This document shows positions 37,707 to 46,291 of a DNA stretch of 64,000 nt, one piece after another; position 1 is the stretch's first letter; every line of letters begins with the position of its first letter. The stretch is from Eubacteriales bacterium. GTDB taxonomy: Bacteria > Bacillota > Clostridia > Oscillospirales > RGIG5299. The notes beneath the pieces were generated by a model, which ran no database searches, was not told the DNA's origin, and saw only the letters and a list, made by a program, of their open reading frames with translations. The stretch covers positions 16,257-80,256 of the forward strand of contig JAZNEJ010000018.1 in assembly GCA_045588575.1 (NCBI GenBank), written 5' to 3'. The position numbers were made by a program, and so were the translations under genes.

Positions 37707-38135
37707 TCAGAACAAAACATCCATAGTAACAACGGTTCCTTGACCTACAACCGATTGAATATCAAGCATATCGGTGTATTTTTTCATGTTCGGCAAGCCC
37801 ATTCCGGCGCCGAAACCGAGAGAACGCACGTTGTCTTTTGCGGTGGAATAGCCTTCTTGCATGGCAAGCTCGATGTTTTCAATTCCCGGTCCTTTATCGC
37901 TTAAAACGATTCTTACGCGGTCGTTGTAAACAAAGACGTCGGCTGTTCCGCCGTTTGCGTGAATTACCATGTTGATTTCGCCCTCATACATAGCAATTGA
38001 AACGCGTTTTACAACATCGGGGTCGATGTGAAGCTGACGTAATAATTTTTTGACGTTAACGGAGGCTTCGCCCGCAGAGGTGAAACTATCGCCGTCAACG
38101 TTAAAATGAAATCTTACGGGATTGGAGTTATCCAT
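37707..38135 (-). CDS. RsbW/SpoIIAB-like Ser/Thr kinase-type ATPase (HATPase_c_2-like anti-sigma regulatory factor family)
   Basis: The track ORF extends to 38216. I prefer the ATG at 38135 (MDNSNPVRF...), which overlaps the DRTGG stop (ATGGATAA). G1 DKGPGI, G2 GFGAGMGL. 142 aa. Confidence 0.75.
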   Translation of the reverse strand: MDNSNPVRFHFNVDGDSFTSAGEASVNVKKLLRQLHIDPDVVKRVSIAMYEGEINMVIHANGGTADVFVYNDRVRIVLSDKGPGIENIELAMQEGYSTAKDNVRSLGFGAGMGLPNMKKYTDMLDIQSVVGQGTVVTMDVLF

Positions 38136-38484
38136 TGATAACACAACCGCCGTTAAGGCCGTTATCAAAAAGCTTTCCGCAAGCAGGATACATGCGTTCA
38201 TCGGAAGCCAAAACAACTATTCCGGATTCATCTGCAAGGCGGATAACATCGTCAGCAGGCTGTTTTCCTCTTACAAAAACGATACAACGCATATCCATCA
38301 TTACGGCTGTTCTTACAACTTGCATATTTACAAGACCGGTAATTAAAACCGCTTGGTCTTTTACAAATGCAAGGACATCGCTCATCATATCGGAAGCACA
38401 GGCGGAATGAACCTCGGATTCGAGCTTGTCTTCGCCGCAAAGAACGCGAGCTTCAAGAAGAGATGCAATAGTACTGATTTTCAT
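38128..38484 (-). CDS. DRTGG-domain protein (copy 1)
   Basis: 118 aa with LITGLVNMQVVRTA and CIVFVRG blocks, as in DRTGG-domain proteins. Confidence 0.7.
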   Translation of the reverse strand: MKISTIASLLEARVLCGEDKLESEVHSACASDMMSDVLAFVKDQAVLITGLVNMQVVRTAVMMDMRCIVFVRGKQPADDVIRLADESGIVVLASDERMYPACGKLFDNGLNGGCVING

Positions 38485-38513
38485 TGTAAACCATCCTTTA
38501 GAGGTTATTTAAC

Positions 38514-39005
38514 TCAATACTTTTCGAGTATTTCGGGGATTTGTGCTGCAGTAAGCTTGCCGTAAACGTCATCGTTAACGGTCATAACGGGAGCAAGACC
38601 GCAACAGCCGATGCAACGGGTTGCAATAAGAGAAAACTTTCCGTCGGGAGTAATGCCGCCGGATTTGATATTGAGAATTTGCGATGCCTTATCGAATACT
38701 TCCTGAGCGCCTTTAACGTAGCAAGCGGTGCCAAGACAAATTCCAACTTCATACTTGCCTTTGGGCTGAATAGAGAAGAAAGAATAGAAGCTTACAACAC
38801 CGTATACTTCTTCAAGCGGAAGATCCAAGCCTTCTGCAATAAAGGTTTGAACTTCGAGAGGAAGATATCCGTAGATTTCCTGTGCTTTTTTAAGAACTTG
38901 AATAAGAGCACCGGGAACGTTTTTGAAATCGGCGATAACAGCATCGAGTTTTGCGTGCTTTTCAGCCGAGTCCGTAAAGGGAACAATCTGCAACTTGTTT
39001 TTCAT
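38514..39005 (-). CDS. hydC: NuoE-like [2Fe-2S] subunit of hydrogenase (HydC/HndA)
   Basis: 163 aa with Cys pattern CLGTAC...CIGCCGLAP. It is the first gene of the operon. RBS GAAGGAGG. Confidence 0.9.
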   Translation of the reverse strand: MKNKLQIVPFTDSAEKHAKLDAVIADFKNVPGALIQVLKKAQEIYGYLPLEVQTFIAEGLDLPLEEVYGVVSFYSFFSIQPKGKYEVGICLGTACYVKGAQEVFDKASQILNIKSGGITPDGKFSLIATRCIGCCGLAPVMTVNDDVYGKLTAAQIPEILEKY

Positions 39006-39093
39006 TCAGTTGCCTCCTTCTTTAGTAATACAAAATGTTGATTTTGCCTATATAGAAAATGTAAAAATACATAAATAGAATATAGACTAAGTT

Positions 39094-39122
39094 ATTATAA
39101 CATAAATTAAGATGAATGTCTA
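39094..39122 (-). promoter_or_regulatory. Proximal promoter candidate of hyd operon (TAGACA-17-TATAAT)
   Basis: On the minus strand, TAGACA at 39122-39117, a 17-nt spacer, and TATAAT at 39099-39094. It lies about 90 nt upstream of the hydC ATG and downstream of the 39168-39195 terminator. Confidence 0.45.
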
Positions 39123-39167
39123 TAAGAAAAACAGAAATATTGACAAAAAATTATCAAATAATTTGCG

Positions 39168-39195
39168 AAAAAAACTTCCCTCGGGAAGAGGGAAG
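39168..39195 (-). terminator. Intrinsic terminator ending the upstream non-coding unit
   Basis: Minus strand reads CTTCCCTC-ttccc-GAGGGAAG followed by U7 (plus-strand A-run 39168-39174). Confidence 0.75.
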
Positions 39196-39318
39196 CTGAT
39201 ATGTAAATTTGTTTATAAGGTTTTATTGAACAACTGTGTGTTTTTACAAAGCAATACTAGATTTCTTTGATGCAAACCTCCTTAAAAGATTTTAAAAAGA
39301 AACCTTGAGTTCAATTGC

Positions 39319-39449
39319 TGCATTGGACTCACCCTTTCACTGAAGTTGAGAGCTGTTTTGTGCATTGGACTCACCTCTCTGAATAGACACAACAGAATTA
39401 AAAGTGTTGCCGGGAAAGTTGCCTTTTAATAGTTTTTTGGACTCAACCC
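39319..39449 (-). repeat. Three direct copies of GGGT(T)GAGTCCAA motif (two are a perfect 15-mer GGTGAGTCCAATGCA)
   Basis: Plus-strand TGCATTGGACTCACC occurs at 39319-39333 and 39361-39375 (15/15 identical, 42 nt apart). The third copy, TTGGACTCAACCC, is at 39437-39449. Confidence 0.9.
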
Positions 39450-39468
39450 TTTCCTTTATCTTGTCTAT

Positions 39469-39497
39469 ATTATAGCAAATAAAAATGATAATGTCAA
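39469..39497 (-). promoter_or_regulatory. Perfect consensus sigma-A promoter with extended -10 (TTGACA-17-TGcTATAAT)
   Basis: On the minus strand, TTGACA at 39497-39492, a 17-nt spacer, TG at 39477-39476, and TATAAT at 39474-39469. Confidence 0.65.
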
Positions 39498-39621
39498 TAA
39501 TATTTTTTAAAAAAGTATAAAAAAATTATTATTTTTGCACAAAGAAATAAGAGAAACAGAAAAGAGTCATAAAAAAGCTCAAAACAAAATATATTTTTGT
39601 AGAAATAAAAAAGCATGAGAG

Positions 39622-41160
39622 GTGTTTCAGTTGGAGATACAAGGAAAAAACATAATAATTGGCGAAACAGTGGCGGATATGGTGTCCGAAAAAACTCTTG
39701 AAGGCGAGATAATAATTCCCGATTATTTAACAGATGCGGTTAGGGTAATAAAAACCGAATGCTCTCCCAGAATAATATCTAAAAGGAAAAGCGAAGATAA
39801 GATTTGCATCGATGTTGCTGCCGACGTAAGAATTTGGTATTATTCCGAAGAGGGAAAGGTAGCTCTCATTTTAAGAACGGAGAACTACACCGAAGAGTTT
39901 AATATAAAGGAATGTCAAAGCTCAATTTGCTTGAGAACGGCAACAAAAACGGAATATGCAAACGGGGGTACGATAAATTCCCGCAAATTAAGCTATAAAG
40001 TGGTAGTTTCAACTTCGGTAAGATGCTATTTCAGAAAAGAAACCAAAATAGTAACCGATGAACAGGCGGCTTGCATGGAATGCGAGCAAACAACTTTTTC
40101 GTTTGGCACTATGGCTGCGGCAACCGAGAAAAATATATCTGTTTCCGACGTTATAGAGGTAATGAGCGGTAAAGGAGAAATAAAGGAAATTTTAAAAAGT
40201 GAGGCAGTGGTTTATACCGGAGATATGAAGCCCATAAATAATAAAATAATAATGAGAGGGCACGTTGATGTAAAAATACTTTATATAAGCGTTGAAGGAA
40301 AAATCGAAACTGTGAGAGCTGAAATTCCGTTTACACAAATTATTGATATAGACGGAATGGACGAAGAATGTATTGCAGACCTTCGTTACACGGTAAACGG
40401 CATAACAGCAACCCCGAAAACCGATGAAAACGGTTTAATGAAGCATATAACCGTTGACGTTGAGCTTTTGGTTTTGGCAAGAGGCTATAAAAACAGTGAA
40501 TATACCGTTTCCTCAGACGCTTATTCTATGGCTTATAAATGTGAGCTTGAATTAAATGAAGTGGAAGCGGAACATTTTGATGGCAAGTATAATGCCTTGA
40601 CAACCGAAAGAGGAACTATTGAAAGCTCCGATACCATTATCTCGGTAAGCGACGTAAGCGCAACTGTTTACACAACCGGAATATTAAGAGAAAACGGTGT
40701 TATAAAAGTTAAATGTGCGGTGAATTGCACTGCACTTGCCGAAAATTCCAATAAAGAGCCCATAGTTTTGAATAAACGCTTTGAAACGGTAAGCGAGCTT
40801 GAAATTAAATCCGATGCAAAATCGGTAAGAGTGGACCCGGATGCAAAGATTTCTTCTATAAGCTACTCAATTTCGGGTGATAACAGAATAGATATTAAAT
40901 ACGATATTAACGTTGACGCCTTGGTTTTTTCGAGCATAAGGGGCGAAATCGTTTCTGCGGCTAAAATAGATGAAAGCGCAAAAATAGAACGCAAAAATTC
41001 ATCACCGTTGGTTATTTATTACGCTAAAAAAGGCGATAAGATTTTTAATATAGCAAAGGCTTACCGCACCTCGAGCAGAGCAATAAGCGAAGCAAATTCG
41101 TTAACCGAATCGGTTTTAAGCGAAGACAAAACAATAATAATCCCGATAATAAAGGCATAG
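39622..41160 (+). CDS. SipL/SpoVID-like spore-coat morphogenetic protein (DUF3794/SPOCS repeats + C-terminal LysM)
   Basis: 512 aa with repeated beta-rich modules and a C-terminal LysM (VIYYAKKGDKIFNIAKAYRTSSRAISEANSL). It ends 12 nt upstream of spoIVA. The start is uncertain (GTG 39622 or TTG 39631). Confidence 0.6.
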   Translation: MFQLEIQGKNIIIGETVADMVSEKTLEGEIIIPDYLTDAVRVIKTECSPRIISKRKSEDKICIDVAADVRIWYYSEEGKVALILRTENYTEEFNIKECQSSICLRTATKTEYANGGTINSRKLSYKVVVSTSVRCYFRKETKIVTDEQAACMECEQTTFSFGTMAAATEKNISVSDVIEVMSGKGEIKEILKSEAVVYTGDMKPINNKIIMRGHVDVKILYISVEGKIETVRAEIPFTQIIDIDGMDEECIADLRYTVNGITATPKTDENGLMKHITVDVELLVLARGYKNSEYTVSSDAYSMAYKCELELNEVEAEHFDGKYNALTTERGTIESSDTIISVSDVSATVYTTGILRENGVIKVKCAVNCTALAENSNKEPIVLNKRFETVSELEIKSDAKSVRVDPDAKISSISYSISGDNRIDIKYDINVDALVFSSIRGEIVSAAKIDESAKIERKNSSPLVIYYAKKGDKIFNIAKAYRTSSRAISEANSLTESVLSEDKTIIIPIIKA

Positions 41161-46012: not shown

Positions 46013-46052
46013 AAAAAAGCATCTGCGGAACTTAATGCTGTCCCGCAGATGC
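46013..46052 (-). terminator. Leader terminator upstream of CDF gene
   Basis: Minus strand reads GCATCTGCGG-14 nt-CCGCAGATGC (10 bp perfect) followed by U6. It ends about 25 nt before the CDF start codon. Confidence 0.7.
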
Positions 46053-46110
46053 TGTAAAAAGCTCTGCTGTCATTCGAGATGACCCGGCTATATGCCTGTT
46101 CAGATTGGTA
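46013..46110 (-). promoter_or_regulatory. Candidate metal-responsive riboswitch/attenuator leader (possibly czcD/NiCo-like)
   Basis: Upstream GCAGA can pair with TCTGC of the terminator 5' arm, giving an antiterminator. There are small hairpins GGC-auaua-GCC and GUCAU-cucga-AUGAC. ACAGG, CCGGGUC and GCGGGAC elements are reminiscent of NiCo conserved blocks. Class assignment is from memory only. Confidence 0.35.
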
Positions 46111-46171
46111 TTAATTTGTAAATGGAACTCTACACTTTATGATATGCTGATATTTGCAAAAAGGTGAGAAT

Positions 46172-46214: not shown

Positions 46215-46291
46215 TGGTCCGAGTGACAGGAGTCGAACCTGCGGCCTCTTGAACCCCATTCAAGCGCGCTACCAAGCTGCGCTACACCCGG
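46215..46291 (-). tRNA. tRNA-Pro (anticodon GGG), CCA encoded
   Basis: Cloverleaf folded by hand. Acceptor CCGGGUG/CACUCGG, D-arm GCGC-AGCUUGGUA-GCGC, anticodon arm CUUGA-AUGGGGU-UCAAG, T-arm GCAGG-UUCGACU-CCUGU, discriminator A plus CCA. Confidence 0.9.

Follow-up and report, generated by a model that had tools for sequence, protein, structure and literature searches.

The window, as we call the whole 64 kb stretch of DNA analysed here, carries on its minus strand an electron-bifurcating hydrogenase (hyd) operon that opens with hydC (39005-38514) and continues with genes for a DRTGG protein, HATPase_c_2, a HydS-like [FeFe]-hydrogenase, a second DRTGG protein, PHP, HATPase, a NuoE-like and a NuoF-like protein; the upstream gene, sipL, is divergent. 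Between sipL and hydC lies a transcription unit (Table 1) that begins at a predicted promoter, P1, and ends at an intrinsic terminator, the stem of which differs in sequence among species while its pairing is kept. A second promoter, P2, follows and would serve the hyd operon, with hydC downstream of it. With a promoter of its own, a strong terminator at its end and a separate promoter for hyd beyond that, the unit appears to be transcribed separately and not to be simply the hyd leader. Judged from its sequence, it is an independently transcribed small RNA of about 240-300 nt (238-267 nt predicted in the orthologues). The proposal of an earlier, sequence-only reading of this DNA, that the repeats discussed below lie within a transcribed non-coding unit, is thus supported by a predicted promoter and terminator.

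Table 1. Coordinates of the features in and around the small RNA unit (positions in the window)
Feature	Sequence	Positions	Strand	Remarks
Promoter P1 of the small RNA	TTGACA, 17 nt, TATAAT, TG extension	39469..39497	-	12/12 sigma-70 consensus positions; -35 and -10 kept in all orthologues
Predicted transcript, ~296 nt		39166..39463	-	5' end placed by the -10 element, 3' end by the U run of the terminator
R1	GAAAGGGUUGAGUCCAA	39437..39453	-	~10-26 nt from the predicted 5' end; no start codon; predicted 16S-tail duplex -15.8 kcal/mol
Segment X	UUUAAUUCUGUUGUGU	39387..39402	-	5' strand of long-range helix HA; alternative partner AUGCACA of R2; strongly conserved
R2	GAGAGGUGAGUCCAAUGCA	39361..39379	-	GAGGUGA, a 7-nt perfect Shine-Dalgarno match; AUG 39365-39363; predicted duplex -17.7 kcal/mol
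Small ORF from the R2 AUG		39282..39365	-	27 codons + stop; in frame with the R3 AUG in the window species
Pyrimidine tract	CUCUCAAC	39345..39352	-	3' strand of candidate stem P3 around R2; 87.5% paired, one double-change pair
R3 with flank	GAAAGGGUGAGUCCAAUGCAG	39318..39338	-	AUG 39323-39321 opens a 13-codon ORF; predicted duplex -16.2 kcal/mol
Helix HA, 3' strand	AUGCAGCA-A-UUGAA	39310..39323	-	includes the R3 AUG
Helix P4, 5' strand	GGUUUCU	39298..39304	-	89.8% paired (<=63% when slid); three double-change pairs
Element in the P4 loop	AAGGAGGU (AGGAGG)	39276..39283	-	fourth Shine-Dalgarno-like element; no following start codon; -13.0 kcal/mol
Helix P4, 3' strand	AGAAAUC	39260..39266	-	partner of GGUUUCU
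Intrinsic terminator	9-10 bp stem, 5-nt loop, U7 run	39166..39197	-	stem 39197-39173
Promoter P2 of the hyd operon	TAGACA, 17 nt, TATAAT, TG	39094..39122	-	kept in orthologues; outside the small RNA

An Rfam scan of positions 38000-41000 gave no match on the unit at E<=10, and Rfam 15 at gathering thresholds returned for the whole window only a tRNA and a NiCo riboswitch, both outside the unit. These two adjoin each other, the riboswitch (46.5 bits, gathering score 37) and the tRNA gene lying at 46036-46113 (-) and 46218-46291 (-). The small RNA fits no Rfam family and is, to all appearance, previously undescribed.

Other elements lie close by (loci fetched for comparison are labelled L001, L086 and so on). 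Between the small-RNA terminator and the -35 element of P2 there is a conserved TTGATAA-N4-TTGTCAA (39140-39157 (-); TTGATAAAAATTTGACAA in L086), found at the matching relative position in L086 and L212. It resembles a Rex-type operator (TTGTTAA-N4-TTAACAA), and redox control of the hyd operon would agree with this. A 6-bp hairpin, GCAACU...AGUUGC (38990-39013 (-)), carries the hydC start codon in its loop and is kept in L001 and L208; GCAACU also occurs in the small RNA, both in the window and in L001, and is absent from that of L081 and L086. Pairing between the small RNA and the hyd leader was considered and set aside: RNAduplex gave only long non-specific duplexes, and the common GCAACU is not kept in L081 and L086. 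An insertion of ~45 nt between P4 and the terminator (about 39205-39250 (-)) is specific to the window and absent from the other species, and 12 nt of it (39237-39248) are 92% complementary to the hyd leader at 39060-39071. The spacer between sipL and P1 holds a 44-nt AT-rich direct repeat (39508-39551 and 39570-39613, 73% identity).

Three repeats kept in five species

The minus strand holds two exact copies of a 15-mer, GGTGAGTCCAATGCA, at 39375-39361 (R2) and 39333-39319 (R3), 42 nt apart, just as the sequence-only reading had described, and the 15-mer has no further match at up to two mismatches in the whole 64 kb window. The third copy claimed at the time is real, with a correction to its extent: the 17-mer quoted for it, GAAAGGGTTGAGTCCAA, runs from 39453 to 39437 (R1) on the minus strand, and the span then given, 39449-39437, covers only the shorter GGGTTGAGTCCAA. 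R1 has one additional T relative to R3 and is without the ATGCA tail. The orientation is the same for all three copies, again as first described.

The suspicion that such a repeat is hardly accidental has been borne out. When the 298-nt unit was shuffled 5000 times with its dinucleotides preserved, an exact direct repeat of 15 nt came up only 4 times, and motif copies are present in the orthologous units, where the order of the repeats is constant and their spacing similar (67-72 nt between R1 and R2, 42-44 nt between R2 and R3, across five species). Since all three copies are kept in this way in four other species-level orthologues, chance is ruled out. What is invariant in 15/15 instances is a 9-nt core, UGA-N-UCC-R-A, preceded on its 5' side by a purine tract (GAAAGG, GAGAGG and variants); R2 and R3 add UGCA after the core, and the flanks and the spacing vary while the core stays fixed. 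A dispersed REP/MITE-like repeat, which would have refuted the earlier proposal, is not what the 64 kb window and a metagenome scan show: TGANTCCRA is at chance level in the 64 kb window (four matches, 3.8 expected), three of the four matches being the repeats and no further copies being present, and in a metagenome scan the 19-mer of R3 belonged to a homologous RNA only in the orthologue L195, its other matches being unrelated. We therefore take the repeats as real and conserved, and as specific to a small RNA that is new and of narrow distribution.

How narrow that distribution is can be seen from the hydC loci. A HydC scan of 185,579 species genomes led to 80 loci, and the small RNA was found in one, the closest (L001, 79% HydC identity). 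Homologue look-ups with HydC and SipL added L081-84, L085/86, L195, L206-209 and L211-213, giving five species-level variants in all (the window and four others); each has the order sipL, RNA, hydC, and each keeps both promoters, the terminator and all three repeats. In the other 79 hydC loci (58-70% HydC identity) the RNA was absent by exact motif, nhmmer and covariance model (49/79), and 11 of these upstream regions were read directly; the covariance model represents the R3-P4 domain, and neither it nor nhmmer detected a homologue in these loci. The small RNA was absent also from L087, where HydC identity is 74%. The idea that the motif might mark hyd leaders in general has to be abandoned, given its absence from those 79 loci. 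As no SipL relative above 25% identity was found beyond the five-species clade, the family is limited to a clade of about genus size among the uncultured gut Clostridia.

One of the variants bears on the partners (DRTGG, HATPase, PHP and HydS proteins) that had been put forward for the repeats. In L208, hydC is followed directly by genes for a 110-aa DRTGG-like and a 182-aa HATPase protein (L208 1501-2916), and the small RNA is intact, with its three copies, whereas the 118-aa DRTGG, HATPase_c_2, HydS and PHP are missing at that operon position. These partners are weakened as candidates, because the RNA persists at a locus that lacks most of them.

Structure of the small RNA

Two helices of the unit show compensatory changes. 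In helix HA, segment X (UUUAAUUCUGUUGYGU, 39402-39387) pairs with AUGCAGCA-N-UYRRA, 90.3% being paired against at most 48.5% when slid, with three double-change pairs. Helix P4 has the consensus GGUUUCY with RGAAAUC and reads GG-A-CCGCC with GGCGGCC in L086, where U-A has become C-G or G-C; the alignment offsets the window row by one column, so the count given for P4 in Table 1 is conservative. The compensatory changes in P4 and HA together suggest that the unit is a structured RNA, and this evidence is modest, as it comes from five lineages only and the changes come mostly from one of them. Segment X can also be paired with AUGCACAG of R2 (87.5% paired, zero double changes), which makes X:R2 pairing a possible alternative to helix HA. 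The AGGAGG element in the loop of P4 is kept in 4/5 species.

The stems that the sequence-only reading had drawn by hand around the individual copies fared less well. At copy 1, GGAAAG/CUUUCC is 72.9% paired with no covariation. At copy 2, GAGAG/CUCUC receives partial support, being 87.5% paired with one double change and no further ones. The extended hairpin at copy 3 was rejected: its outer stem, GAAA/UUUC, uses a strand needed by the covarying P4 and is lost in L086, where P4 is kept, and no species other than that of the window has its inner stems. The idea that every core has a local hairpin was likewise rejected, since a better-than-shuffled downstream complement was seen only in L086 and at copy 3 of the window. 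For the 9-nt core, 3/5 species offer no conserved partner within the RNA, in the sense of a significant downstream complement, so the core probably lies outside any conserved helix. The earlier suggestion of a site for a trans-acting partner gains from this, and can now be given a concrete candidate RNA partner, the 3' tail of 16S rRNA, which that suggestion did not name. Folding prediction places the purine tracts mostly in pairs (unpaired probability 0.06-0.49) and gives the cores only average accessibility.

Likeness of the repeats to translation start sites

What had been overlooked in the sequence-only reading is that the repeats have a Shine-Dalgarno and AUG character and are complementary to the 16S 3' tail. 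The tail used here is that of the generic Firmicute 3' end (CUGGAUCACCUCCUUUCU, with reverse complement AGAAAGGAGGUGAUCCAG; single-stranded tail 5'-GGAUCACCUCCUUUCU-3') and not this genome's own. All of the repeat instances (15/15) are predicted to pair with almost the entire generic tail, at -14.3 to -17.7 kcal/mol, and in every orthologue the three repeats are the top three sites of 16S-tail pairing. In R3, for example, the predicted pairing runs through GAAAGG, GUGA, a bulged base and UCCA. For comparison, the real start regions in the window (n=52) have a median of -9.2 and a best value of -17.4 kcal/mol, and a value of -15.8 kcal/mol is attained at only 15 sites when both strands of the 64 kb window are counted, three of which are the repeats. 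In the full 18-nt tail duplex, the core positions that vary are only the predicted bulge (GAGUCC to GAUUCC) and an A-U/G-U position (CCAA to CCGA). These energies are to be read with the state of the tail in mind: they drop to -10 to -12.7 kcal/mol when only the strictly free 15-nt tail is used, and pairing with the GGA of the tail would require the last pairs of helix 45 to open. Also, the complementarity was reached after many ideas had been tried, so its nominal rarity (~1e-3) has to be discounted. Among the fetched loci there is one 16S end, GGATCACCTCCTTTCT, which belongs to another gut organism (L156); at positions 780-1200 of L156 this 16S rRNA 3' end is joined to part of a tRNA and to the 3' end of hpf, so that the contig is probably a chimeric assembly.

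In sequence, R2 and R3 are built like strong start sites of the Firmicute type in which the Shine-Dalgarno pairing is extended. In 5/5 species, GAGGUGA or AAGGGUGA is followed by an AUG, as in a canonical initiation region, and in all ten R2 and R3 instances this AUG stands at a constant 8 nt past the GAGG/AGGG core; R1 has no start codon. The way in which the same sequence is used elsewhere points in the same direction. A metagenome scan with the R3 19-mer, AAGGGTGAGTCCNATGCAG, gave 116 loci. On 79 contigs the 19-mer serves as start site for a membrane-protein gene that lies downstream of hpf, an assignment that replaced the reading of these matches as an internal coding match (KGESDAA); on 11 contigs it is the start site of rplE, and on one that of an IS110 transposase, and the ORFs that open at the motif AUG in these three contexts have 111-343 codons. 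That the 19-mer works as a genuine start site for unrelated genes is an independent support for the start-site character. About seven families of matches are chance occurrences inside genes, and five are intergenic with ORFs of 2-3 codons. Outside L195, the metagenome matches have nothing in common with the small RNA beyond the selected 19-21-mer.

The intergenic cases are curious in their own right. GAAAGGGTGAGTCCRATGCAG is there followed by a stop after 0-1 more codons (MQ*, MQL*, MQN*), at L133 1524-1559, L151 4235-4263, L202 2780-2815, L119 1203-1259 and L165 665-735, all gut metagenome contigs, and three of these cases lie just past agrD-like peptide genes. L133, L144 and L202 have a common right flank, and the left flank of L144 differs, as at a recombination junction.

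If R2 and R3 do initiate translation, the products are small and changeable. The R2 ORF has 27 codons in four of the five species and 9 in L086, and it crosses R3 in another frame in L001, L208 and L081; the R3 ORFs have 10-13 codons and sequences that are unrelated among species. Across the five species neither sequence, frame nor length of these ORFs is conserved, and indels shift the frame, for which reasons protein coding was rejected. With the peptides unconserved and the frames differing, nothing here supports translation as such mattering, and any function would have to be one of the RNA itself or of initiating as such. Support is lacking also for a classical leader-peptide attenuator, since codons and peptides are unconserved and the small ORFs end far from the terminator (stops 47 to >130 nt before it).

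Interpretation and comparison with known systems

The explanation that we favour, tentatively and at somewhat less than even chances, is that the repeats are elements resembling ribosome (30S) binding sites, carried by a small RNA that is peculiar to this lineage and transcribed independently. 30S subunits would bind R1-R3. R1, near the predicted 5' end and without a start codon, would act as a 5' stabiliser in the manner of a STAB-SD, while R2 and R3 would initiate tiny ORFs of which the peptide sequence is immaterial. Segment X would pair with the AUGCA of R3 (helix HA) or with that of R2, and since it could take either partner, we propose that one start codon would be masked at a time. Among the points that count against this 30S reading, the 15/15 identity of R2 and R3, which includes the spacer and post-AUG bases, is more than start sites need, and the purine tracts are predicted to be paired.

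A bolder extension makes the small RNA an abundant stand-alone regulator, which would capture 30S subunits or the 3' end of immature 16S rRNA, as a ribosome sponge or throttle, or else titrate a dedicated protein, and so link translation capacity or hyd expression to the H2/redox state in these gut Clostridia. We hold this to be improbable, and we know of no bacterial small RNA whose action rests on multivalent pairing to the 3' tail of 16S rRNA.

Among the alternatives to 30S binding, the one that survives best, though still rather unlikely in our estimate, is an array for a sequence-specific RNA-binding protein, possibly an oligomer, which would turn the RNA into a protein sponge or a protein-controlled regulator. 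The RNA would then perhaps be an output or target of the hydrogenase signalling genes, with UGANUCCRA shown in loops closed by purine/pyrimidine stems. A core that is invariant in 15/15 instances between variable flanks and spacings, and that in 3/5 species has no conserved partner within the RNA, is what such an array could look like, and the identity of R2 and R3 over 15 nt, beyond the requirement of a start site, would be accounted for. Yet no RNA-binding domain was found in the nine operon proteins scanned, and L208 keeps the RNA while lacking HydS, PHP, HATPase_c_2 and the 118-aa DRTGG at the locus. The stems divide in the same manner: that of R2 is 87.5% paired with one compensatory change and the predicted folding has the purine tracts paired and the cores more open, but the stem of R1 shows no covariation. 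Finally, a strong promoter fits an abundant titrating RNA, against which no additional motif copies lie near start codons in the 64 kb window, so that a regulon is not visible there.

The probability is low, as well, that the repeats are structural modules of one larger fold, riboswitch-like, ligand-binding or self-assembling, in which a triplicated unit of ~45-70 nt makes tertiary contacts or pockets. Two helices do covary, and the likeness of R2 and R3 extends past the 15-mer (purine tract, core, AUGCA, ~12-18 nt, UUUC), but the minimum free energy is ordinary (z = -1.0), no Rfam family matches beyond terminator-driven sub-threshold alignments, and the distribution, over five species, is very narrow. 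The terminator just upstream of a same-orientation operon is reminiscent of a riboswitch or tandem aptamer; against this, the conserved part of the RNA ends 8 to >60 nt before the terminator depending on the species, no conserved antiterminator was found in the five species, and beyond the terminator a separate, conserved promoter serves the hyd operon.

A role at the level of DNA, as transcription-factor operators or a GANTC methylation cluster between P1 and P2, is very improbable: the variable core base is the N of GANTC (GAGTC/GATTC), the window contains fewer GANTC sites than dinucleotide shuffles would give (113 against 190 expected) and the 42-44 bp from R2 to R3 correspond to about four helical turns, but the depletion vanishes under a higher-order expectation and GANTC is then ordinary (0.74 observed/expected under a 4-mer Markov model, 0.90 in relatives, with CCNGG and CTNAG lower than GANTC), the conservation is far wider than GANTC and strictly directional, whereas GANTC is palindromic, the R1-R2 spacing of 67-72 bp gives no helical phasing, the neighbouring sequence evolves as RNA does, with compensatory and G-U changes, and the unit that encloses the sites is bounded by a perfect promoter and a terminator. 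The most depleted palindromic 5-mers of their kind in the window under that model are CCNGG (0.62), CTNAG (0.69) and GANTC (0.74), which may reflect restriction avoidance.

If the repeats are indeed ribosome-binding-site-like elements, we would have before us an undescribed small RNA family of uncultured gut Oscillospirales-type Clostridia, with three unusually long Shine-Dalgarno-like motifs, and a natural case for extended 16S-tail pairing outside ordinary genes, be it for RNA stabilisation, decoy starts or 30S capture. The fixed place of the RNA before an electron-bifurcating hydrogenase operon suggests RNA-level control of H2 metabolism as no more than a possibility. The family spans five species only, so its general importance would be limited unless the mechanism is new.

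Several known RNAs can be set beside the small RNA. The nearest Rfam families, the PyrR binding site (RF00515), the PyrG leader (RF02371) and the Bacillus sRNA ncr952 (RF02453), were rejected at 20-28 bits against gathering scores of 54-100, the best score in the four orthologues being 27.6 bits against a gathering score of 65. These sub-threshold alignments span R2/R3 to the terminator (PyrR in L208 and L086, PyrG leader and ncr952 in L208 only); they rest mainly on the terminator hairpin, and the pyrimidine gene context is absent here. The CsrB/RsmZ sponges are like our RNA in being separately transcribed and probably abundant small RNAs with several copies of a short motif, partly in predicted loops. 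The motif of CsrA sites is GGA, however, whereas the repeat core here contains no GGA and is present in three copies only; just two GGA occur in the window RNA outside the terminator.

The closer parallels are found in translation initiation. In Staphylococcus aureus, a Firmicute, extended Shine-Dalgarno helices define start sites, as seen by cryo-EM (PMC13009471). R2 and R3 resemble such starts in their Shine-Dalgarno core, in complementarity that continues towards the start codon and in an AUG at ~8 nt; they differ from these starts, and from small leader ORFs, in that the ORFs here have 9-27 codons and are unconserved. The STAB-SD is a Shine-Dalgarno sequence without a start codon that binds 30S subunits, stabilises the RNA and blocks RNase J1 (PMC4113751), the case in point being the 5' mRNA stabiliser of Bacillus thuringiensis cry3A (Agaisse and Lereclus 1996, reviewed in PMC4113751). 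There a lone element (GAAAGGAGG) sits in the leader of an mRNA that encodes a protein, whereas here three copies lie in a terminated non-coding unit, and these repeats add the invariant UGANUCCRA extension, two of them with an AUG; stabilisation by R1 is our proposal. In its sequence, R1 nonetheless has what characterises a STAB-SD, with a position near the 5' end (~+10 to +26 from the predicted start), predicted pairing with the complementary 16S 3' end at -15.2 to -16.2 kcal/mol, and no usable start codon following.
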